64,000 nucleotides of DNA from a virus (lineage: Duplodnaviria; Caudoviricetes): positions 47,016-111,015 of the IMG/VR virus record IMGVR_UViG_3300017791_000021. The stretch is one strand, 5' to 3'. Each line of letters begins with the position of its first letter. The first letter of the stretch is position 1. Positions 5,856 through 64,000 of this stretch are shown one piece after another. Below the pieces are notes generated by a model. It was given only the letters and a program-made list of their open reading frames with translations, was not told the DNA's origin and ran no database searches. The translations under genes were made by a program, and so were the position numbers.

Positions 5856-6329
5856 TTAGTACCCACAATCATAGTCAAACTGAACGACAGACTCCGGAGT
5901 AACTACAATCTTGGTGTCATTACCGAATACAGAACGCAAGGCATCCTCAAATGCTCCATCATCAACAGGAACGTTGACCTTCAGTATCCAGGCACCGTCA
6001 GGGTGTGAACTGTAGTGCTCATAGTCGTATTCGTCGTAATAGATATCCTCATCAGGATAGGCGATTTCCATATCCGGCTCAGACTCCTCTAGCCAGGCAC
6101 GCGCAACTTCCGCGTTGGAAGTCAGCTTAGCCTCACGAACAGAGAACTCGCAAGGCTCTCCGTCGTTCCAACCAGGAGTGTACTGTTCCCACATGACTGC
6201 CTTGACACCCTGCTCAAAGGCTAGCTTAAAGTAGGGGTACAGCTCCTCAATGGGCTTCTGAATAGCACGAGACCAACCGCCGTAGCTTCCCTTTACTGCC
6301 ATACCCATAAACACAGTACTGTTACCCAT
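5856..6329 (-). CDS. Hypothetical phage protein
   Basis: WEQYTPGWNDGEPCEF motif; coupled to neighbours. Confidence 0.75.
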   Translation of the reverse strand: MGNSTVFMGMAVKGSYGGWSRAIQKPIEELYPYFKLAFEQGVKAVMWEQYTPGWNDGEPCEFSVREAKLTSNAEVARAWLEESEPDMEIAYPDEDIYYDEYDYEHYSSHPDGAWILKVNVPVDDGAFEDALRSVFGNDTKIVVTPESVVQFDYDCGY

Positions 6330-7630: not shown

Positions 7631-7674
7631 CTAGTTATCCATAACCACTCCCACATAGTGGGAATGATTAAAGC
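7631..7674 (-). promoter_or_regulatory. Intergenic hairpin element, type 1 copy A
   Basis: Minus strand GCTTTAATCA-stem/loop-TATGGA-TA-ACTAG, related to 8326-8372. Confidence 0.55.
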
Positions 7675-7676
7675 TA

Positions 7677-8315
7677 CTAGCAGTGATAGTCCACAACGGT
7701 GATAGCAAGGTTAGCTATCGGCTCTACGTCACGAAGGTAGTTCCAGTAATCATAGGCAGGATTCGGGGGGAATACAGAGTTGGGATCGCCATCCTCATAA
7801 CCCACACCATCCTTGTTGTACGTCTCTCGCTTGATGAACTCGCCATCAAGAGTCAGATAGGAATACGGACCGCTATCCATCCAATCATACTTACCATGAT
7901 TGCGCAAGGAAAGAGCATAGCCGATGGAAACAGTATTGACAGAACTTGTAGTAGAGACAACTCCTTCAAAGAACTTGCGCGCCTCACTGGTCTCCCAGTA
8001 GTTATCCCAGCGTCCACCGATAACCCACCAATCCCAGTAACCCTGAGGATTCCAGGTGCTCAGCTTATAAGCGCCCTTCTCATCGGTGTAGGTGACAGAA
8101 TTACTCCAGGAGAACGGGATCACATCGTTAGGGTCATCACCTTCGTGATAGCCCTTCTCGGCATACCATGCATTCGCGCTAGCAATCTCCTTCTCGCTGT
8201 AGTAATCCTTATACTCAGGAACTTCCAGCTCCTCATAAAAAGGAGTCATCTTTTCCGTGATGTATTCCTCCACATCAACATCAGCAGGATGAATAACGTG
8301 CAGTACGTAGTGCAT
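7677..8315 (-). CDS. Hypothetical phage protein with NPxGxWDWWVIGGRW motif
   Basis: GAGGAG RBS; WDWW.IGGRW and C-terminal VVDYHC motifs common in phage proteins. Confidence 0.8.
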   Translation of the reverse strand: MHYVLHVIHPADVDVEEYITEKMTPFYEELEVPEYKDYYSEKEIASANAWYAEKGYHEGDDPNDVIPFSWSNSVTYTDEKGAYKLSTWNPQGYWDWWVIGGRWDNYWETSEARKFFEGVVSTTSSVNTVSIGYALSLRNHGKYDWMDSGPYSYLTLDGEFIKRETYNKDGVGYEDGDPNSVFPPNPAYDYWNYLRDVEPIANLAITVVDYHC

Positions 8316-14523: not shown

Positions 14524-14717
14524 CTAGGATCAATCTCACAATAGATGGCGTTCCCCTTACTCTGATTGATTACTCGGTGGGGATTCTTAGTGTGCTTTGC
14601 GGAAGTCCGGCAGATATTAGATCCACCGGACTTCCGTACCCGATGCACGTCATGCCAATTCCCATTCATCTTGACCTGGAGCATGTATGTGTCATCTCTG
14701 TCATGCGTTACAGCCAT
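14520..14717 (-). CDS. Hypothetical protein
   Basis: Coupled between PNK and the next gene. Confidence 0.6.
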   Translation of the reverse strand: MAVTHDRDDTYMLQVKMNGNWHDVHRVRKSGGSNICRTSAKHTKNPHRVINQSKGNAIYCEIDPR

Positions 14718-15616
14718 TAGAAATCTCCGTCTGCCACCTGGAGAACCTTGATCCCCAGCTTACGAATACGTCGGACAACCCTGTTGCGGTCATCCAGCCA
14801 CACGTGAACACGGTACTCGTCACGCACGTACTTGTCAAACAGGTGTTGCTTGACATCCGCATCGTTGATTCCCTGCATGTCAGCCGGACGCATGAACAGG
14901 TGATCAAACGTCACACCATGCCCATGCAGCCAATCCGCAGTGTCCTGACGGACGTTGTTGATATCCGGACGACCAGACATAATGATGATCTCGTATCCAT
15001 CATCAGCGTACAGGTTGACCAGATTGATAATCGACTGGAACGGACCATCAGTCAGCACGCGGCTGTAGTCGTACGGAGAGCGCGCAATGTGCTCAGCAAG
15101 GGTTCCGTCCACGTCCACCACGATAGCCGCAGAGGAGCCGTCCTGAGGCACGTACAGAGGCGACAGGACCACATCGTTCATGAACTCAGGGGTCAGCCTC
15201 CAAGGCTTCTGGAGCTGTCGCGCCATATTCCGGATGACAGTCTCACCAACCGGCTCATCTCGCTGTGAATCGCGCTCAATGCAGGTCTCTACAGGAACAT
15301 TGGTGAAGTCAGCAACAAGGAATTCCACATCCCCGTCAAAAAGCTTCTTGATTCGAGTAGGAGATTTCTTGTTCAGGTTGGTGTCGTGAACAATAACGTC
15401 CTTACCTTCCTTGATAGCACGAACGATAATGTCATCCTGAATCTTGGATACCAGATCCTCCTGACCCTTAGTGCCGACAGGAAAGCATCCAATCATTGCA
15501 CGAATATCATCACGAGAAACCAGAACGATCTGCTCAGGGTCCTGCATCTGATGAGCAGTTGCCCACGTGCTCTTACCCGATCCCGGAAGACCAGTGGTCA
15601 GGATAATCTTGCGCAT
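14717..15616 (-). CDS. pseT: Polynucleotide 5'-kinase / 3'-phosphatase (T4 PNK-like)
   Basis: GLPGSGKST P-loop, SRDDIR, DTNL; HAD domain DVDGTL, SGR, DDR. Confidence 0.95.
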   Translation of the reverse strand: MRKIILTTGLPGSGKSTWATAHQMQDPEQIVLVSRDDIRAMIGCFPVGTKGQEDLVSKIQDDIIVRAIKEGKDVIVHDTNLNKKSPTRIKKLFDGDVEFLVADFTNVPVETCIERDSQRDEPVGETVIRNMARQLQKPWRLTPEFMNDVVLSPLYVPQDGSSAAIVVDVDGTLAEHIARSPYDYSRVLTDGPFQSIINLVNLYADDGYEIIIMSGRPDINNVRQDTADWLHGHGVTFDHLFMRPADMQGINDADVKQHLFDKYVRDEYRVHVWLDDRNRVVRRIRKLGIKVLQVADGDF

Positions 15617-57794: not shown

Positions 57795-57845
57795 ACTGGT
57801 CTAGTGCTATTTCCCCTTAAGGATAGCACTAGACCAGTGGTTTTT
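57795..57845. terminator. Terminator-like hairpin after RNA ligase
   Basis: ACTGGTCTAGTGCTAT / ATAGCACTAGACCAGT 16-bp inverted repeat; T-tract on plus side. Confidence 0.65.
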
Positions 57846-57862
57846 ATGCGTACAGAGAGTAA

Positions 57863-58918
57863 TTACTCTGCGCTAGGCTTGATCAGGTCATATACCTTAT
57901 CAGTAATGTCCTTTCCGTCCAACAGGCTGAACATAAAACCGGGATATTCGGTCCACTCATCGCTGGTTGCGAGTCGTGCGAACTCCTTTCGCGTCCAAGA
58001 ATCGGAATCCTTGTCCAGAGCCTTGCAGATCTGACGAAAATCGCTCTTGGCAATCGTATCGATCAGCAGAAAATCCTTTCGGATCTCCTTGAAAGTCTCC
58101 TTAAGCCAGGCGTGCCACTCGTCCGGAACGATCTCACACAGTTCCTGGAGCGTCTGGCCTTCCTTCATGTTCTCCCAGACCCGACGCTTTGTCAAACCCG
58201 TCACGATCTTGTGCAAAGCAATGTAGTCATCCTGCTTGATCTTGATCCGGTAGTTGAGATCCGGGAAGAAGACCACAAGACCTTCCGCGTTGGGGCGCGG
58301 AGGAGCCTCCAGTGCCTCTCTAAGCGTCTCGTAGGGGAAGGTCTGAGCGCGGGGACCACGCCACGTCACAACCTCGTTAGGAAGCAATACGTCGCCTTCC
58401 TCAATGTCACGCACACCCAGCAGAATCAGCTCATCCATATCTCCATAATCCAGCACAATACGGTTGGACGGATAGACAATCTCAAACATATAGGTCCACA
58501 TAGGAGCAACCTTGAAACCATACTTCGTCTTCCACAGCTCTGTAGCGTGGATTGCCTGCTCAGAAGTAAAGGAGCCACGAGTAGCAATTCCCTGCTCACC
58601 CTCATAAGACCAAAGGATACCGAGCGAACCATCCATCTTATCGGTTGCTACTACACGCTGATCCATAAGCATTGCGTCAGCCTGATTCTGACCATAGTTC
58701 AGGAACTTGTCAAAGGGCCGCGCGATAACCGTACCAGCGGAGTTTGCAATCAGACCACGGCACTTGGTAGTGACGTTGTTCCACTCTCCGTCATACTGAG
58801 CCTTTTCCGTGTAGTTGTAGATGATCAGGTCAAGAGTAGGGTGAGTGTTCTCACGCACATAGCCCTGATCGTGCATGTACATGTATTCCCGGTAACCAAA
58901 CAGATCGTAGATGTGCAT
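57863..58918 (-). CDS. rnlA: RNA ligase (T4 Rnl1-like)
   Basis: YNY, CRGLI, ARPFDKFLN, motif I KMDGSLG, TRGSF, FEI, EGLV, KIK. Confidence 0.93.
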   Translation of the reverse strand: MHIYDLFGYREYMYMHDQGYVRENTHPTLDLIIYNYTEKAQYDGEWNNVTTKCRGLIANSAGTVIARPFDKFLNYGQNQADAMLMDQRVVATDKMDGSLGILWSYEGEQGIATRGSFTSEQAIHATELWKTKYGFKVAPMWTYMFEIVYPSNRIVLDYGDMDELILLGVRDIEEGDVLLPNEVVTWRGPRAQTFPYETLREALEAPPRPNAEGLVVFFPDLNYRIKIKQDDYIALHKIVTGLTKRRVWENMKEGQTLQELCEIVPDEWHAWLKETFKEIRKDFLLIDTIAKSDFRQICKALDKDSDSWTRKEFARLATSDEWTEYPGFMFSLLDGKDITDKVYDLIKPSAE

Positions 58919-58950
58919 TGCCTGCCTCCTTCGTTGATGTGATGTGGTAC

Positions 58951-59007
58951 AGCCTAAGGGATTAGAAAACCCCTGTCAAGGGAGCGAATCAACCTTGACA
59001 GGGGTTT
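58951..59007 (-). promoter_or_regulatory. Terminator hairpin whose downstream arm is the -35 of the RNA ligase promoter
   Basis: AAACCCCTGTCAAGG / CCTTGACAGGGGTTT inverted repeat; minus strand TTGACA-17-TAGGCT. Confidence 0.7.
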
Positions 59008-59020
59008 ATTGGGTGGTACG

Positions 59021-59102
59021 TGGATGGAGAGGGACTTGAACCCCCAGACCCGAAAGACCGGTTTTACAGACCGGCACGCTACCAATTACGTTTTATCCAT
59101 CC
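59021..59102 (-). tRNA. tRNA-Tyr(GUA)
   Basis: GGATGGA/TCCATCC acceptor, CCGGT-CTGTAAA-ACCGG, long V-arm, TTCAAGT T-loop. Confidence 0.9.
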
Positions 59103-59104
59103 GG

Positions 59105-59176
59105 GGTGACTGACGGGACTTGAACCCGCATTGGCCACGACCACAACGTGGTGCATTACCGTTATGCTACAGTCAC
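59105..59176 (-). tRNA. tRNA-His(GUG)
   Basis: GTGACTG/CAGTCAC, CCACG-TTGTGGT-CGTGG, C73. Confidence 0.9.
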
Positions 59177-59178
59177 AG

Positions 59179-59250
59179 TCCGGGCGAGAAGAGTCGAACT
59201 TCCGTCTACTCCTTATCAGAGAGTCGTTCTAACCGTTGAACTACGCCCGA
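59179..59250 (-). tRNA. tRNA-Ile(GAU)
   Basis: TCGGGCG/CGCCCGG, ACTCT-CTGATAA-GGAGT, TTCGACT. Confidence 0.85.
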
Positions 59251-59256
59251 TCATAT

Positions 59257-59565
59257 TTACTTGTGTTCGTTAATGATACCAAGGATCTTAAACTTTGGCA
59301 AGGCTCCTACGTTATACTCGACAACCTTACCCTTCTTAAACAATAGAAGAGTTGGAATTGAAGCAATATCGTAGCGCTTAGCTAGTTCGGCTTGCTCATC
59401 TGCATTGATCTTCACTACTTCTAGCCAGTCGTTCTCTTCTGATACAGACTGTAGCACGGGAGCCATCATCTTGCAAGGTCCGCACCAGTCAGCCCAGAAG
59501 TCAACTAGAACTGGCTTCTCAGATTCAAGAACCTCATTGAAGTTCTCAATAGTAATGTCACGCAT
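59257..59565 (-). CDS. trxA: Thioredoxin
   Basis: VLVDFWADWCGPCK, SIPTL; start re-assigned to ATG 59565 behind AGGAG. Confidence 0.95.
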   Translation of the reverse strand: MRDITIENFNEVLESEKPVLVDFWADWCGPCKMMAPVLQSVSEENDWLEVVKINADEQAELAKRYDIASIPTLLLFKKGKVVEYNVGALPKFKILGIINEHK

Positions 59566-59585
59566 ATATTCTCCTAATCGATACG

Positions 59586-59658
59586 TACTCCCAGCGGGAT
59601 TTGAACCCACAACCGCCTGTATATAAGACAGGTGCTCTCACCGTTGAGCTATGGGAGC
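59586..59658 (-). tRNA. tRNA-Ile(UAU)
   Basis: GCTCCCA/TGGGAGT, CCTGT-CTTATAT-ACAGG, TTCAAAT. Confidence 0.85.
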
Positions 59659-59788
59659 AGGTAAGCACCATATTAGCCGTACCAGAGCGTTTGTGCAATC
59701 GATCTCTTCTCTGCACCAGGCTAATACTTTTCCTTCACATCGCAACTCCGATTGCACGGGGAGGGAAGGCAGGCAAGTGCTCTTACCT
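59659..59788 (-). ncRNA. Candidate structured ncRNA (two arms with 9-bp loop-loop complementarity)
   Basis: Closing stem AGGTAA(GA)GCAC/GTGCTTACCT; arms CCTTC/GAAGG and TATTAGCC/GGCTAATA; GTGCAATCG vs CGATTGCAC. Confidence 0.6.
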
Positions 59789-59794
59789 GTGCTG

Positions 59795-59878
59795 CGGAGG
59801 AAGAGGGATTCGAACCCCCACGGCTTTCACACCGTACGGTTTTCAAGACCGTGCCACGCCACCGATGTTAGTTCCTCC
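59795..59878 (-). tRNA. tRNA-Ser(UGA)
   Basis: GGAGGAA/TTCCTCC, ACGGT-CTTGAAA-ACCGT, long V-arm, G73; weak D-stem. Confidence 0.85.
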
Positions 59879-59956
59879 ATTGCGCTGAACCTTAAAGGAG
59901 TTCAGAGAGATATCACCGTACGGACCTTTTGCCGTACAGCCACCTTTTAAGTGCTG

Positions 59957-60040
59957 CGGAAGAGACGGGAATCGAACCCGCTCGGCCTTGAGAGCCTTAC
60001 TACGTTTCCAGCGTAGCCGCTAACCATTTGCTTCTCTTCC
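59957..60040 (-). tRNA. tRNA-Ser(GGA)
   Basis: GGAAGAG/CTCTTCC, CTACG-CTGGAAA-CGTAG, long V-arm, G73. Confidence 0.85.
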
Positions 60041-60045
60041 ATGCG

Positions 60046-60130
60046 CGGAGACAGAGGGATTCGAACCCTCGGAGGTGTTACCCTCACTTGCTTAGCAGGC
60101 AAGCCCAATCGACCGCTCTGGCATGTCTCC
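60046..60130 (-). tRNA. tRNA-Ser(GCU)
   Basis: GGAGACA/TGTCTCC, CTTGC-CTGCTAA-GCAAG, long V-arm, G73. Confidence 0.9.
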
Positions 60131-60134
60131 AAAG

Positions 60135-60213
60135 AGCGATAGGGGAGAATCGAACTCCAAACGCTAACGGTTTTGCAGACCGTTCCCAGACCATCTGAGT
60201 TAACGCCTACCGC
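60135..60213 (-). tRNA. tRNA-Cys(GCA), atypical D-arm
   Basis: GCGGTAG/CTATCGC, ACGGT-CTGCAAA-ACCGT, U73, TTCGATT. Confidence 0.7.
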
Positions 60214-60218
60214 ATGGG

Positions 60219-60296
60219 TGGATCTGCTGGGAATCGAACCCAGGTCCGCTGGTGCTCCGCGTGCGGCTTTCGCCAACGTCGAAACCTTCCAGACCC
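60219..60296 (-). ncRNA. Mini-tmRNA: tRNA-like domain only, no mRNA-like domain
   Basis: GGGTCTG-GAAGGTTTCGA-CGTTGG-[20 nt]-CCAGCG-GAC-CTGGG-TTCGATT-CCCAG-CAGATCC-A; G3:U70 and A73. Confidence 0.8.
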
Positions 60297-60301
60297 ATTA
60301 G

Positions 60302-60385
60302 TTACGCTCTATAAGGTGGTCTAGGACCACTTGGTGGTTTTGGCATGTTAGGCCCCGGAAAGGGCTTTGGTGTTTTTGGTTTCAT
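60302..60385 (-). CDS. 27-aa proline-rich peptide MKPKTPKPFPGPNMPKPPSGPRPPYRA
   Basis: ATG..TAA fills the tRNA-Val / mini-tmRNA spacer; 11 Pro using all four Pro codons; no SD. Confidence 0.55.
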   Translation of the reverse strand: MKPKTPKPFPGPNMPKPPSGPRPPYRA

Positions 60386-60386
60386 G

Positions 60387-60457
60387 TACCCGATGAGGGA
60401 ATCGAACCCCCGCATGTAGTGTGTAAAACTACTGGTCTCCCATTAACCTAATCGGGC
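60387..60457 (-). tRNA. tRNA-Val(UAC)
   Basis: GCCCGAT/ATCGGGT, GTAGT-TTTACAC-ACTAC, TTCGATT. Confidence 0.85.
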
Positions 60458-60480
60458 ATAAGCCCCGAAGGGCCGTTAAG

Positions 60481-60648
60481 CTAAATTCTGTGGTAATCCC
60501 TAACAGTCACATTCTTAATTGTGACAGCATCAGGATCTTTTGTGTCGGTGAGAGTTACAGTGCATTTATCACCATACACTTCTCTGATGACCGCAGGACG
60601 ACCCTTGTAGTGCCCACGATCCATCATGATGTGCTGTCCTACTATCAA
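60481..60648 (-). CDS. 55-aa KOW-motif microprotein (below ORF-track cutoff)
   Basis: TTG behind AGGGAG; MIVGQHIMMDRGHYKGRPAVIREVYGDKCTVTLTDTKDPDAVTIKNVTVRDYHRI. Confidence 0.7.
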   Translation of the reverse strand: MIVGQHIMMDRGHYKGRPAVIREVYGDKCTVTLTDTKDPDAVTIKNVTVRDYHRI

Positions 60649-60667
60649 GGTGTCTCCCTATTATACC

Positions 60668-60838
60668 TTACGCCTTGCGAACCTCAGACTCTCGGAAAGA
60701 ATCCTCATCACCCTTAGAGTGACCAACTCCATCCTCAGTTGCCTTTACAGCAACCAGCTTGCGAGCTGTGTCAGTGAAGGTAACCTTACCAACCCAGCCG
60801 TTTGCAGTCTCAACCTTGTCTCCGCGCTTGAATGCCAC
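60668..60838 (-). CDS. 56-aa SH3/KOW-like microprotein (below ORF-track cutoff)
   Basis: GTG behind AAGGAGG; MAFKRGDKVETANGWVGKVTFTDTARKLVAVKATEDGVGHSKGDEDSFRESEVRKA. Confidence 0.8.
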   Translation of the reverse strand: MAFKRGDKVETANGWVGKVTFTDTARKLVAVKATEDGVGHSKGDEDSFRESEVRKA

Positions 60839-60869
60839 AAGTGCCTCCTTGTTAGGTTTAGTGCTTGCG

Positions 60870-60947
60870 TACCCCAGACAGGATTCGAACCTGCATACTC
60901 CATTACGCTTTTAATGACCGGTTAGAAGCCGGGGGCGATACTGGGGC
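60870..60947 (-). tRNA. D-armless tRNA-Arg(UCU)-like RNA with long variable arm
   Basis: GCCCCAG-TATCGCCC-CCGG-CTTCTAA-CCGG-T-CATTA-AAAGCG-TAATG-GAGTAT-GCAGG-TTCGAAT-CCTGT-CTGGGGT-A. Confidence 0.65.
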
Positions 60948-60973
60948 AAGTCCGCCCGAAGGCGGGTAGTGGG

Positions 60974-61483
60974 TTAGTCCCACCAGTGAGAACTATTGTA
61001 CTTAGAGTCTTCGAAGACGTCAATGTCTTCCCAGTCTCCATCTTCCCAATAGCGGCCGTAGTCTCGTACCGCGCTGTGCAACTTCTGTCTAACCTTAGAG
61101 CGTACAGCTCCGTTTGTCAACTGCTTGAAGTCCTTGCTACTACGGATATTGGGGTAGTACTCAAGGTTGTAGTAGCAGTGCTTATCTACCAGGCGCTCTT
61201 CATTCGTAGCATTTCTAGGATGATTAATGCGCCAAGTAGATGGTGTCTCTTCGGGTATGTCGATTGTGCAGTCTACAGGCACGTACCAACGCTTGTACAG
61301 CTTGCGAACGTACCAGAGCTTGTCTTCCCAGTGCCAACCGTCTTTGGTAGGCACACGGCGGTATACCGGCTCTTCTCCGACCAACTCAGTCTGTAGGACC
61401 ATGTGATCGTGAGATGGATATCGTGACATAGACGGATCATTCTTCAAAACCCAGTATGGACGATCCTTACGAGTACGAGACAT
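60974..61483 (-). CDS. Basic/aromatic hypothetical protein
   Basis: ATG 61483 behind GGGAG; MSRTRKDRPYWV...HDH...C...C...WWD. Confidence 0.75.
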   Translation of the reverse strand: MSRTRKDRPYWVLKNDPSMSRYPSHDHMVLQTELVGEEPVYRRVPTKDGWHWEDKLWYVRKLYKRWYVPVDCTIDIPEETPSTWRINHPRNATNEERLVDKHCYYNLEYYPNIRSSKDFKQLTNGAVRSKVRQKLHSAVRDYGRYWEDGDWEDIDVFEDSKYNSSHWWD

Positions 61484-61504
61484 ATCAACTCCCAAGGTAG
61501 TGCT

Positions 61505-61592
61505 AAAGAAAATGCCAGATATCAGAGACTCTGGCGGATCTCCCGTTCATTGAGACTTTATAGGGTGTGTTTCAGAACGGCTTAGATATCCC
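61505..61592 (-). promoter_or_regulatory. Structured leader with terminator and possible anti-terminator
   Basis: GCCAGA/TCTGGC hairpin + ATTTTCTTT; upstream GGATATC can pair with GATATCT in the terminator arm. Confidence 0.4.
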
Positions 61593-61594
61593 TG

Positions 61595-61667
<73 letters not shown>

Positions 61668-61671
61668 ATAA

Positions 61672-62247
61672 CTAGAAGGCAAGATTTCCTGCGGACTGAA
61701 TATTGATACTATTCGGACCTGAAATCTGAACCTGCTTAGCAAGTTTGTTGTACCCTCTAAGTGTATTCAAATACTTGTATAGCTTGCCAGGAGTTACCAG
61801 GTACGGTGGGTACTCGGTCAACTTAACTCCAGCGTTCTCATAATCCAAGGCTACGAGTTGAGAACAGATCAAATGGTTTGAACTCTCAACGCGCTTTGCT
61901 ACACCAGGATGCTTGATACCTAGACGATACAGCGCGATAGCCAGGTAGTCAAGGAAGCTGTAAGGCGTTCCTTCCTGCGCCAACGCTGACTGAACAATAA
62001 GGTTGCGCTGCTCATCTGTCAAGGGCACATAGCCAGTAGACCAGATGATTGGACGACCATCATATTCAGCCAAGTCAGAAATAAGTGCGCCACCAGGCTC
62101 AGCCTCAACGATCTTACCATCACCTACATAAACGAAGGCGTGTTCGTAATCACGGAAACCATCTCCATTGAAAAACTGACCGACTCGGATTAAGAATCCG
62201 ACTCCGCCCTTAATGGATACTAGACCGAAATCTCCTGGCTGTGGCAT
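61672..62247 (-). CDS. Permuted papain-like NlpC/P60 enzyme (YiiX/YebB-like)
   Basis: QPGD, YEHAFVYVG..KIVEA, GTPYS, LICSQLV, VTPG (His before Cys). Confidence 0.85.
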   Translation of the reverse strand: MPQPGDFGLVSIKGGVGFLIRVGQFFNGDGFRDYEHAFVYVGDGKIVEAEPGGALISDLAEYDGRPIIWSTGYVPLTDEQRNLIVQSALAQEGTPYSFLDYLAIALYRLGIKHPGVAKRVESSNHLICSQLVALDYENAGVKLTEYPPYLVTPGKLYKYLNTLRGYNKLAKQVQISGPNSINIQSAGNLAF

Positions 62248-62343
62248 TATTTCCTCCTAAAAATTATTTCCCTACACGTCGCTAACCATATCCCATATAG
62301 GATATCTCCGACTGCCTACCCTCATCCTACTCCTCGGGAAAAG

Positions 62344-62416
62344 TGATTCCTGTCGGACTCGAACCGACGCGCTTCGGATTAAAAGTCCGCTGCTCTGCCA
62401 ACTGAGCTAAGGAACC
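62344..62416 (-). tRNA. tRNA-Lys(UUU)
   Basis: GGTTCCT/AGGAATC, CGGA-CTTTTAA-TCCG, TTCGAGT. Confidence 0.9.
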
Positions 62417-62421
62417 AAAAG

Positions 62422-62494
62422 TGGATCGCCAGGGACTTGAACCCTGAACCTTCAGATTAAGAGTCTGCTACTCTGCCAATTGAGTTAGCGATCC
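62422..62494 (-). tRNA. tRNA-Lys(CUU)
   Basis: GGATCGC/GCGATCC, CAGA-CTCTTAA-TCTG, TTCAAGT. Confidence 0.9.
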
Positions 62495-62502
62495 ATTAGG
62501 AA

Positions 62503-62573
62503 AGACATGACCTGACCTAGAGATAACAGGTAGTAATTGTAGCCTTTGCGCATCGCGGCTTCATAGCATGTCT
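62503..62573 (-). ncRNA. Candidate small three-way-junction RNA
   Basis: AGACATG/CATGTCT closing stem with AGCC/GGCT and ACCT/AGGT arms; fills tRNA spacer. Confidence 0.4.
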
Positions 62574-62577
62574 AACG

Positions 62578-62648
62578 TGGAGCCACGGGGAGTCGAACCC
62601 CGATTGCGGGTATGCAAAACCCGTGTCCTACCATTGAACGATGGCCCC
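62578..62648 (-). tRNA. tRNA-Ala(UGC)
   Basis: GGGGCCA/TGGCTCC with G3:U70, CGGGT-TTTGCAT-ACCCG. Confidence 0.92.
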
Positions 62649-62653
62649 ATAAG

Positions 62654-62804
62654 GCGGTTTTGTACTAGAGGGCAGTCCGCCAACTGCTCTGTATAGCTTA
62701 GCAGGTTTTACCCTACTAATCAACTCTTGGGCTTTGGTCGGTTGCAGTCGGGGCAGACAGCCTTCTCAGGAGCCCACCAGCTTCTACACCAGATACAAAA
62801 CCAC
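62654..62804 (-). ncRNA. Candidate 151-nt structured ncRNA directly downstream of Ro60
   Basis: 11-bp closing stem GTGGTTTTGTA/TACAAAACCGC with several internal stems. Confidence 0.6.
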
Positions 62805-62808
62805 TTCA

Positions 62809-63999
62809 TTATGCCTCCCAAGGCCACTTCTGGCTCTGACCCGCCTCAATGAGAGGGATCATCTGGAAACCCTTGTCAGTCAGTCCACCGAAGGTGTGAC
62901 GCTTCTTAGAACCAGACTGACTCTGACCAACACGGTAACCCTCAAGGTTCCAGGTATACACCGGAGTGCTTACCGGAACGCTTGCAAGAGGATCGCCACC
63001 CCAACCGTTGTACTGCTCATCGGTGATGATGATAACACGGTCATGACCCTTGAAGCTACCCTTTACCGCCGCAGCAGTATCGGTGCCACCCATGTCACGG
63101 AACTTGTCCATCATCGGAAGTAGCGAGTTACCCTTCTTGAAGCTTACAGCCTCGTAAGGCTTACGTCCACCCCAAGAAGAACCGAACTGAATCAAGTCAG
63201 CATTCTCAGCTCGAAGCGCAAGCGCAGAACCGAAGATAGCAGCCTTATCAGCCATAGTCAACTCGGAGTCAGTACGGTGGTGCTGGAACATAGAACCAGA
63301 ACGGTCAACCAGGATCAGAGTACGCCCAGTCAGAGACGGAACGTTACTCAGAGATGCCTCAAGAGCTTCCTCAAGCGCCGCAGCGATCTTCAGGTTACCC
63401 TTGTTGGCCTGGTAAGCCGCAAGGAAACGGAACGGGAACTGCTTGCTCTTAGCAACCTGAGCCGGATCGGACAGCTTAGCAAGAACACGGTTCAGCACAG
63501 TAGCACTGATACCGGCATCCTGGAAGTTACGCAGGTTGCGAAGCAACGCCATGTAACCCATGTTCGGGATAACAGCCTCCCACGCAGCCTTGTCCATCGG
63601 ACCCTGAAGCCATCCGGACAGAGCTTCCCACGTCATGCCAGCACGAGACAGAGTTTGCATACCAGCCTGAGTACCAATGAGAGCCTTACGCTTCTCAACA
63701 GGAGCAGACATCAGGTTAGCACGAGTGCTAATCATGTCAAGCTCGTAGTTGTGATCAAGAATGGTGTCGTTGCCGTAGCGACGATCAAGCGCATACTTGA
63801 ACAGAGCGTTCTGCTGTGCATTCTCAGCCTTGGCGTGAGAAAGCTGAAGAACGTCAGCGAAACGGTATCCCTTGGAATCCGTGTCGTACTTAAGCCAAGA
63901 GTACTCGTTGTAGAGACGCTTTGCGCCATCTGCAACACCCTTCTTAAGGTACGCAGGGAAGTTCTTGCCGTACTTGCTCTCGTAGTAAGCCAGCACCTC
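62809..63999 (-). CDS. rsr: Ro60 / TROVE-domain RNA-binding protein, N-terminus beyond the window edge
   Basis: TWEALS, MGYMALLRNLRNF, QFPFRFLAAY; vWA MIDAS LVDRSGSM, GGTD, IITDEQ; frame open to the edge. Confidence 0.95.
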   Translation of the reverse strand, partial: EVLAYYESKYGKNFPAYLKKGVADGAKRLYNEYSWLKYDTDSKGYRFADVLQLSHAKAENAQQNALFKYALDRRYGNDTILDHNYELDMISTRANLMSAPVEKRKALIGTQAGMQTLSRAGMTWEALSGWLQGPMDKAAWEAVIPNMGYMALLRNLRNFQDAGISATVLNRVLAKLSDPAQVAKSKQFPFRFLAAYQANKGNLKIAAALEEALEASLSNVPSLTGRTLILVDRSGSMFQHHRTDSELTMADKAAIFGSALALRAENADLIQFGSSWGGRKPYEAVSFKKGNSLLPMMDKFRDMGGTDTAAAVKGSFKGHDRVIIITDEQYNGWGGDPLASVPVSTPVYTWNLEGYRVGQSQSGSKKRHTFGGLTDKGFQMIPLIEAGQSQKWPWEA

Positions 64000-64000
64000 A

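Follow-up and report, generated by a model that had tools for sequence, protein, structure and literature searches.

A tRNA and RNA-metabolism island of a Streptomyces-type phage, with a tmRNA lacking a coding sequence and a candidate Y-RNA-like array upstream of Ro60

What is the role of a block of phage DNA in which transfer RNA (tRNA) genes alternate with a Ro60 gene, an RNA ligase gene and short, seemingly structured spacers? The question is raised by positions 57863-63999 of the window, by which we mean the whole 64,000-nucleotide (nt) stretch analysed here, comprising bases 47016-111015, that is, the last 64 kb, of the 111,015-base virus record IMGVR_UViG_3300017791_000021. The record has a direct terminal repeat of 141 bases at its ends and the island wraps around them, continuing at the genome start beyond the window; because the Ro60 frame leaves the window end and resumes at genome 142-536, the region makes up only the downstream half of a unidirectional island of ~12.5 kb. 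An earlier note on this DNA had described one co-oriented block of Ro60, RNA ligase, tRNA array and mini-transfer-messenger RNA (mini-tmRNA). All listed features do lie on the minus strand, the parts list is borne out by Pfam, PHROG, ARAGORN and Rfam, and the general theme of tRNA supply, RNA repair, Ro60 and ribosome rescue holds. Our explanation of the whole as a tRNA and RNA-metabolism island, which covers the identities and the conserved gene order together with the inferred processing and roles, has in our estimate a probability of roughly 0.65. Its principal components are as follows.

62809..63999, minus strand: Ro60 (TROVE and vWA-like), C-terminal 396 amino acids (aa); its N-terminal part is encoded on the other side of the terminal repeat, at genome 142-536
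57863..58918, minus strand: Rnl1-type RNA ligase, 351 aa, with the KxDG motif as KMDG (Pfam, PHROG, translation)
60216..60296, minus strand: mini-tmRNA without a coding sequence (CDS), 81 nt, tRNA-like domain only (RF00023, 60.4 bits against a cut-off of 47)
Genome 613-1262, outside the window, minus strand: five tandem Y-RNA-like modules between tRNA-Asn and the Ro60 start

Megablast with the region returned Streptomyces phages as the only matches. The same gene order was found in five deposited Streptomyces phages, BRock (Borockvirus), GiJojo, Alone3, LuckySocke and pSt2308, and is also kept in three IMG/VR relatives of ~112 kb each (L004, L005 and L040; the remaining working labels are L001 for the window's own genome, L002 GiJojo, L003 Alone3, L031 BRock, L032 pSt2308, L033 LuckySocke and L045 DS6A, and L035 and L038 are second copies of L004 and of a LuckySocke-like contig). 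Order and strand are shared from a set of tRNAs through the Ro-like protein, tRNA-Ala, two tRNA-Lys, a peptidase-like gene, tRNA-Arg, a 173-aa gene and the tRNA-Arg(tct) position to small open reading frames (ORFs), tRNA-Val, the mini-tmRNA, the tRNA-Ser genes, tRNA-Ile, thioredoxin, tRNA-His, tRNA-Tyr and RNA ligase. Ro60 of L004 and L005 is 83% identical to that of the window; L040, which is not among the Ro60 matches, was ranked a closer relative by its small ORFs, tRNA order and spacers. The window phage is of the BRock, GiJojo and Alone3 kind, which infect Streptomyces. The earlier note did not recognise the combination as a described system. Because the identical order already stands in deposited, annotated Streptomyces phages, the combination is not new; the deposited relatives annotate the Ro-like RNA binding protein, the tRNAs, thioredoxin and RNA ligase, and among the components, phage Ro60 with YrlA RNAs is described in PMC4201824 and a CDS-less phage tmRNA in PMC11915505. 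The gene block is ordinary for these phages and forms no new system, and its unannotated RNAs are of moderate interest. Larger, Jay2Jay-like Streptomyces phages also group tRNAs, a 283-nt tmRNA, an RNA ligase and a polynucleotide kinase, and cassette content varies among the phages compared.

The mini-tmRNA comprises an acceptor stem with G3:U70, a D-loop analogue, helix 2a, an invariant inner hairpin and a T arm, and has 12 nt in place of 304 positions of the RF00023 model, on which the relatives' copies score 54.2-65.5 bits. Alignment of eight sequences revealed 96.6% pairing with compensatory changes in 9 of 22 pairs, a level reached by none of 500 shuffles and compared with 33-48% in slid controls. 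The acceptor helix was 100% and the T helix 95% paired, both with compensatory changes, and G3:U70, the alanine identity pair, was kept in all eight. Because the mRNA-like domain is missing, with no resume codon, tag frame, stop or pseudoknots, the RNA belongs to the CDS-less subtype only; ARAGORN called no tmRNA or tag at its position in the window. The encoded 3′ end is ACCC, and since the island tRNAs also lack CCA, this would need to be added post-transcriptionally. A pattern scan of viral contigs yielded 11 further loci, giving ten distinct variants in all, one of which (L036) encodes CCA. Over 80-82 nt, the copies of GiJojo and LuckySocke are 100% identical to the window RNA, and in public records the RNA is unannotated or lies under a hypothetical CDS (GiJojo gene 44). 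At position 5990 of BRock, ARAGORN flags a permuted-type tmRNA over the mini-tmRNA.

A CDS-less tmRNA of mycobacteriophage DS6A has been reported previously (Mao et al. 2009, as cited in Nawrocki, Petrov and Williams 2025, PMC11915505), and when expressed in E. coli it inhibits the endogenous tmRNA, according to the account of Mao 2009 given there. A covariance model of the mini-tmRNA found the DS6A copy at NC_023744 28475-28562 with 62.5 bits (E 6e-15); the next best matches reached at most 30.7 bits and were mostly tRNAs, one being the 3′ part of Jay2Jay's annotated tmRNA. Since the DS6A copy is recovered by the model and shares the inner hairpin, the window mini-tmRNA is, judged from sequence and predicted structure, a homologue of the DS6A RNA and a member of a known subtype. 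In the RefSeq record NC_023744 no annotation covers the DS6A tmRNA, which lies between gp33 and gp34.

Ro60 was recognised by a TROVE domain (E 2.7e-17, 63.5 bits against a cut-off of 23) followed by a vWA-like domain, whose VWA_2 match of 24.5 bits is under the cut-off of 27, and by a PHROG match to 'RNA-binding protein' (E 1.3e-42); at the nt level the gene is 74% identical to the one that Alone3 and LuckySocke annotate as 'Ro-like RNA binding protein'. The array lies 30-700 nt upstream of it on the same strand. Each module follows one plan: a closing stem (stem a) is joined by GA/UC pairs and a UA bulge, both invariant; UGCG-N-A faces a U-rich strand across an internal loop, and a second stem and a variable domain complete the module. 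Among 26 modules from six phages, the GA/UC pairs and UA bulge were invariant in all 26, and 155 of the 182 closing-stem cells were paired, a figure that fell to 57-72 in slid controls, with all four Watson-Crick pair types at variable positions. The structure was also seen in consensus folds made per unit, the short unit 4 reaching 94.7% pairing with 4 compensatory pairs. In the window genome, a T arm is present in units 1, 2, 3 and 5, a D arm in unit 2 only, and neither in unit 4; for unit 5, all six phages have the T arm, whereas the D arm occurs in L004, L040, Alone3 and GiJojo but not in L005 or the window genome. Unit 2 shows the arm order of YrlA (T arm, acceptor-like stem, D arm) and matches Rfam YrlA (RF02553) in that order (32.4 bits, E 4.7e-5), its closing stem being backed by covariation. 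Because the RF02553 gathering score was not reached, we termed the modules Y-RNA-like and not YrlA. In deposited relatives the array is unannotated save for module 5, which is labelled tRNA-Ser(gct) or tRNA-Arg(cct).

The earlier note pointed out that bacterial Ro60 works with Y RNAs; the best candidates for these turn out to be the upstream array, and its five modules, rather than the window spacers, are the likely candidate RNA partners of Ro60. One window spacer, between tRNA-Ala and tRNA-Lys (62495-62576), was considered as a sixth module and rejected, as it shares short motifs but has no closing stem. The unit-4 model, run over the window unfiltered and with a limit of E 10, found no match, this spacer included; the same model also misses the paralogous units 1, 3 and 5 and finds unit 2 only as a weak partial match (14.4 bits, E 0.67), and is therefore so narrow that its blank in the window is weak evidence. 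The sole YrlA row that Rfam gave over 57800-64000, at 62358-62470 (20.3 bits, E 1.2), spans both tRNA-Lys genes and was set aside as the kind of artefact of which the accessible text of Chen et al. 2014 (PMC4201824) warns.

The tRNA genes of the window region, 14 with tRNA-like genes included and in addition to the mini-tmRNA, are arranged as follows.

62577..62648, minus strand: tRNA-Ala(TGC) (ARAGORN, Rfam)
62343..62494, minus strand: tRNA-Lys(CTT) and tRNA-Lys(TTT), 4 nt apart (ARAGORN, Rfam)
61594..61667, minus strand: tRNA-Arg(ACG) (ARAGORN, Rfam)
60870..60947, minus strand: atypical tRNA-like RNA, Arg(UCU) (Rfam tRNA 29.8 bits against a cut-off of 29; no ARAGORN call)
60386..60457, minus strand: tRNA-Val(TAC) (ARAGORN, Rfam)
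60135..60211, minus strand: tRNA-Cys(GCA)-like RNA with a long D stem (tRNA-Sec model, 35.6 bits; missed by ARAGORN)
59794..60130, minus strand: tRNA-Ser(GCT), tRNA-Ser(GGA) and tRNA-Ser(TGA) (ARAGORN, Rfam)
59020..59658, minus strand: tRNA-Ile(TAT), thioredoxin, tRNA-Ile(GAT), tRNA-His and tRNA-Tyr (ARAGORN, Rfam; Pfam for thioredoxin)

Of the 28 tRNAs that ARAGORN called genome-wide, 11 fall in the window and the other 17 at genome 1260-5713; the Rfam tRNA model gave 30 matches, the two beyond ARAGORN being tRNA-Ser(GGA) at 59957-60040 (37.9 bits) and the Arg(UCU) RNA at 60870-60947. The island total is 31 tRNA or tRNA-like genes, which cover all 20 amino acids because the Cys(GCA)-like tRNA is counted in. 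None of the 15 tRNA or tRNA-like genes of the window, with the mini-tmRNA among them, encodes CCA. The Cys(GCA)-like tRNA, whose acceptor stem and anticodon were read by eye, was detected by the tRNA-Sec model alone because its D stem has 6 bp; tRNA-Cys genes annotated in other Streptomyces phages match it at 82-84% identity across 51 nt. The Arg(UCU) RNA departs from the cloverleaf: it has a 7-bp acceptor stem, the anticodon loop CUUCUAA, an extra 5-bp arm and a T arm, and 7-8 unpaired nt in place of the D arm, which is absent. Five copies were found, including those of Francob and Enygma from other phage groups, and 96.4% of their cells pair, against 28-51% in slid controls; four pairs change compensatorily. 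A GC hairpin at 60948-60973 directly precedes this RNA, and relatives carry a canonical tRNA-Arg(tct) at its position. A literature search for D-armless tRNAs in bacteriophages returned general reviews only.

Three further observations concern tRNA loci elsewhere. In BRock, an annotated tRNA-Cys (6189-6269) and tRNA-Tyr (7668-7749) lie on the strand opposite their neighbouring tRNAs, and at 6189 ARAGORN gives a plus-strand tRNA-Arg(tcg) instead of the annotated tRNA-Cys. At genome 1810-1973 (minus strand), beyond the window, a manA RNA match (RF01745, 55.1 bits, E 2.5e-12, cut-off 55.2) fills the 168-nt spacer between tRNA-Leu(taa) and tRNA-Leu(tag), which by ARAGORN coordinates is shorter in relatives (~13 nt in L004, 48 in L005 and 80 in L040). 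The spacer between tRNA-Lys(ctt) and tRNA-Lys(ttt) is a conserved ~246-nt element in GiJojo, Alone3, pSt2308 and LuckySocke, and measures 167 nt in BRock, 135 nt in L004 and 4 nt in the window.

The RNA ligase is of the Rnl1 family (PF09511, 42.6 bits against a cut-off of 28.3; phrog_562, E 9.6e-75), and the polynucleotide kinase that the earlier note placed at 14717-15616 is real, a Pnkp with kinase and HAD_PNKP domains (E 1.9e-40). The other protein genes of the region are these.

62720..62827, minus strand: 35-aa CxxC...CxxC zinc-ribbon micro-ORF, overlapping the Ro60 stop
61672..62247, minus strand: 191-aa protein with a weak papain-like amidase (C92) match (Pfam, 18.3 bits, under the cut-off of 27)
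60974..61495, minus strand: 173-aa conserved protein, no Pfam or PHROG match
60481..60838, minus strand: two small ORFs of 56 aa and 55 aa, the 55-aa one weakly KOW-like
60302..60385, minus strand: 27-aa proline-rich micro-ORF, its start codon 1 nt past the tRNA-Val discriminator
59257-59565, minus strand: thioredoxin (Pfam, E 3.8e-29)

The 191-aa protein matched phrog_1128 (E 1.2e-24) and is a 'peptidase' in the relatives' annotation; its gene has a 95-nt 5′ leader (62248-62342) in common with L040. In tblastn searches the 173-aa protein was found at 50-67% in 11 loci, which represent eight phages as three loci are second copies of the same contigs; the 56-aa ORF was found in L040 and BRock and the 55-aa ORF in Alone3, LuckySocke and L005. 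Neither of these two proteins was assigned a family by Pfam or PHROG, the KOW match of the 55-aa ORF (20.2 bits) being under the cut-off of 22.3. The 35-aa micro-ORF (Pfam Zn_ribbon_11, 20.1 bits, under the cut-off of 24) is conserved at the same position in six relatives including BRock (tblastn: GiJojo and pSt2308 60%, L004 54%, Alone3 and LuckySocke 41%). The 27-aa micro-ORF is in frame in five of the eight phages compared, namely the window phage, L004 (88%), L040 (60%), GiJojo (57%) and pSt2308 (57%), and absent at the same locus from L005, Alone3 and BRock; against L004, four of seven internal codon differences are synonymous, and in three of the five phages carrying it the micro-ORF ends a few bases ahead of the mini-tmRNA. 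The composition of the peptide presumably resembles that of proline-rich antimicrobial peptides. In Alone3 the micro-ORF site (reoriented 15098-15230, tRNA-Val to mini-tmRNA) holds tRNA-like D-arm and T-arm motifs split by a ~60-nt insert.

What, then, fills the spaces between the tRNAs? The earlier note saw most spacers as occupied almost exactly by a structured RNA or a micro-ORF. The elements are listed here with z values from comparison with shuffled sequences.

62653..62687, minus strand: candidate H-type pseudoknot GCAGU-UGGCGG-ACUGC ... CCGCC, ending 4 nt ahead of tRNA-Ala (z -1.79 for the 71-nt spacer that holds it)
62495..62576, minus strand: 82-nt closed stem-loop RNA in the tRNA-Ala/tRNA-Lys spacer (z -0.93)
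61496..61593, minus strand: structured leader from tRNA-Arg(ACG) to the 173-aa gene, with helices P2 and P3 and a possible pseudoknot P1 (z -1.26)
60458..60480, minus strand: GC hairpin with a UUCG loop, ending 3 nt ahead of tRNA-Val (z -2.29)
59879-59956, minus strand: 78-nt two-hairpin spacer between tRNA-Ser(GGA) and tRNA-Ser(TGA) (z -2.25)
59659..59793, minus strand: 135-nt spacer between tRNA-Ser(TGA) and tRNA-Ile (z -0.85)
58969..59008, minus strand: intrinsic-terminator-like hairpin with a U run after tRNA-Tyr (terminator scan)

Comparison of relatives revealed conserved structure at several of these sites. Both helices of the pseudoknot at 62653-62687 change compensatorily in L005; the motif recurs unchanged in GiJojo and pSt2308 but is missing from L004, L040, Alone3 and BRock. 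A tRNA-Arg leader of ~100 nt is present in all eight phages, with P2 at the same place in all eight in five sequence versions, and P3 likewise, and P2 and P3 are retained for their positional covariation; the possible pseudoknot helix P1 would begin at the first base past the tRNA, a tentative assignment. All eight also have, ending 3-4 nt ahead of tRNA-Val, a hairpin whose loop is UUCG or GAAA. The Ala-Lys spacer is conserved with L005 only (5 of 21 predicted pairs compensatory) and has unrelated sequence in L004 and L040, and the Ser(GGA)-Ser(TGA) spacer is likewise in common with L005 only (4 of 20 predicted pairs compensatory). At the latter spot, L004 (15051-15148), L040 and Alone3 have a different, highly conserved element of ~98 nt (GGCAGUGCAACCCUAUGUGG...), which GiJojo also carries after tRNA-Ser(gga). 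The 135-nt spacer gave one weak match in GiJojo (47 nt, 70%, E 0.02), and its counterpart in L004 is only 3 nt; blastn of the 135-nt and 100-nt spacers against deposited phages gave no match, and Rfam searched over 57800-64000 at E up to 5 found no known family for any spacer.

Because L004, the closest relative, is unrelated at the Ala-Lys and Ser-Ser spacers and has 3 nt at Ser-Ile, the spacer set is a mosaic. A patchwork that differs even between close relatives points to modular processing or stability elements and not to the one coordinated effector set that the earlier note supposed. The view of filled spacers thus survives in part: covariation in relatives and the two conserved micro-ORFs speak for it, and folds no better than shuffles and the unrelated L004 sequence against it. 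Synteny and covariation across related phages, to which the earlier note had looked for a check, likewise divide, the gene order being kept and several elements covarying but the spacers not being conserved as a set.

We propose that the block would be transcribed as long precursors from which host RNase P and 3′-end enzymes excise the tRNAs, and that these cuts would also free the mini-tmRNA, the Y-like RNAs and short mRNAs, with the hairpins and pseudoknots that abut tRNA ends protecting the new 5′ and 3′ ends of the released mRNAs. The tRNAs would let an AT-richer genome go on being translated and would stand in for those that host nucleases remove; we know of no host anticodon nuclease for the window phage. 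Rnl1 and Pnkp would reseal cut tRNAs, and Ro60 with the Y-like RNAs might handle misfolded or damaged RNA. The message-less, alanine-accepting mini-tmRNA may compete with the host tmRNA for SmpB, of which no gene was found in the phage genome, and for stalled ribosomes, and would in this way blunt host trans-translation, as reported for the DS6A homologue. Contigs of relatives at 90-95% covering island parts were found in two metatranscriptome runs and in one run guessed to be RNA.

Several observations weigh against this explanation. Pnkp is encoded 43 kb away from the island. For the six spacers of 71-135 nt, z is -0.85 to -2.25 against 200 shuffles, of which 6 to 37 fold as well, the only outlier being the terminator stretch 58919-59019 (z -3.39); in single sequences the pseudoknot helices of the tRNA-Arg leader are no better than shuffles (9 to 113 of 300). 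The strong terminator-like hairpin after tRNA-Tyr stands between the tRNA block and the ligase gene and so suggests that the ligase may be a transcription unit of its own. The Y-like modules are under the Rfam YrlA cut-off (best 32.4 against 69), and a search for YrlA at cut-off in eight relatives' loci gave no match. The inhibition by the DS6A RNA is known from E. coli, not from an actinomycete, and second-hand through PMC11915505. The RNA-library contigs indicate presence only, with no ends, strand or level; DNA carry-over is possible in them and the parts they leave uncovered are uninformative.

In an alternative that we consider somewhat unlikely, the island serves codon supply only: the tRNAs would serve a 48.7% G+C genome in a high-G+C host, the spacers would be processing, insulating or terminating hairpins or leftovers of cassette recombination, and Ro60, ligase and mini-tmRNA would be independent accessory genes in an insertion-tolerant region. 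The G+C content of 48.7% (Streptomyces has ~70%) and the coverage of all 20 amino acids fit this account, as do the ordinary fold energies, the spacers that differ from L004 at Ala-Lys, Ser-Ser and Ser-Ile and the cassette content that varies between phages. Yet from BRock to the window, at protein identities of 35-70%, the genes follow one another unchanged as Ro60, tRNAs, thioredoxin, tRNAs and ligase, and several spacer elements keep their helices through compensatory changes. Papers in the field, in their accessible text, also propose that phage tRNAs evade tRNA-targeting defences.

A second alternative concerns the mini-tmRNA alone and is, in our view, unlikely: as a helper, it would add one alanine to stalled peptides and free the ribosomes without placing a proteolysis tag on phage proteins. 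All features for charging and SmpB binding appear to be kept under selection, and, in the account of PMC11915505, a role of this sort has been proposed for CDS-less jakobid mitochondrial tmRNAs. Against it, the RNA has no resume or stop codon and hence no known release of peptidyl-RNA, and the DS6A form is reported to inhibit endogenous tmRNA in E. coli (PMC11915505, second-hand).

Equally doubtful, as a joint reading, is that the island holds several undescribed RNA classes, namely the Y-like array, the D-armless tRNA-Arg(UCU), the pseudoknots and hairpins at tRNA ends and a micropeptide message. On that reading the five-module array, with a bulged-helix core of its own, would serve the phage Ro60; the D-armless tRNA-Arg(UCU) with its long extra arm would replace the canonical tRNA and still decode AGA; pseudoknots and tetraloop hairpins placed exactly at tRNA ends would yield end-protected mRNAs on tRNA excision, a bacterial-virus version of mitochondrial tRNA punctuation; and a near-leaderless message beside the mini-tmRNA would encode the conserved proline-rich 27-aa peptide, which might act on the ribosome. 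Very unlikely, finally, is the integrated system of the earlier note, in which window spacer RNAs, set free by tRNA processing, would be effectors or Ro60 ligands acting with micropeptides against anticodon nucleases and ribosome-stalling defences: spacer elements do closely abut tRNA ends, some are conserved with compensatory changes and the Ala-Lys spacer has short motifs in common with the Y-like modules, but the short Y-like module model has no match in the window, that spacer is without the module's closing stem, the array sits upstream of Ro60 and the spacers are not conserved as a set.

Read as a tRNA and RNA-metabolism island, the block is of value for annotation and as a source of leads. 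CDS-less, DS6A-type tmRNAs are widespread and unannotated in large Streptomyces phages and soil viral contigs (ten distinct variants), phage Ro60 genes are accompanied by a tandem Y-RNA-like array, parts of which are now mislabelled as tRNAs, and inter-tRNA spacers carry small conserved modular RNA structures. The cultured relatives GiJojo, Alone3, LuckySocke and BRock make direct tests possible in Streptomyces.

Among known systems, the nearest are the islands of the deposited relatives. Those of GiJojo and Alone3 have 66-76% nt identity to the window in a few long alignable blocks, with higher values for short tRNA-sized matches. The atypical UCU RNA of the window takes the place that a canonical tRNA-Arg(tct) holds in the deposited islands, and the window has an extra tRNA-Ile(TAT) and different spacer elements; the deposited records leave the mini-tmRNA and the Y-like array without annotation or label them wrongly. 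In T4, Rnl1 and Pnkp repair nuclease-cut tRNA. The window phage too encodes both an Rnl1-family ligase and the kinase-phosphatase Pnkp, its two genes being 43 kb apart, and phrog_562, the family of the window ligase, also bears the tail-fibre attachment label of T4 gp63.

The Ro60 (Rsr)/YrlA/YrlB systems offer a second comparison. According to the accessible text of Chen et al. 2014 (PMC4201824), YrlA is found near Ro60 in 254 bacteria and 22 phages, and in M. smegmatis YrlA and YrlB lie upstream of rsr and derive from one precursor, YrlA being cut by RNase P; the supplementary tables of that paper list YrlA phages and copy numbers, and similar arrays may already be included there. As in the window phage, the RNAs of these systems lie on the same strand less than 1 kb upstream of Ro60; several M. 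smegmatis Y RNAs come from one precursor, and one window-genome module has the YrlA arm order. The window phage differs in having five tandem modules, against one or two in those systems as described in that text, and in their shared core, a bulged helix with invariant GAUGCG-N-AG / UUUCUAG; the published GNCGAAN0-1G motif is matched in part only, CGAA occurring in 6 of 26 modules.

For the mini-tmRNA, the jakobid mitochondrial tmRNA without an mRNA-like region (Jacob et al. 2004, as cited in PMC11915505) is likened here by description only: it too is reduced to an alanine-accepting tRNA-like domain, in an organelle gene and with SmpB encoded in the nucleus. The DS6A tmRNA belongs to another phage group and host genus, and its neighbours on either side are protein genes rather than the tRNAs of an array. 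It consists, as does the window RNA, of the tRNA-like domain alone, with G3:U70, the same inner hairpin (GAAA.CCGCACGCGG) and a T arm.

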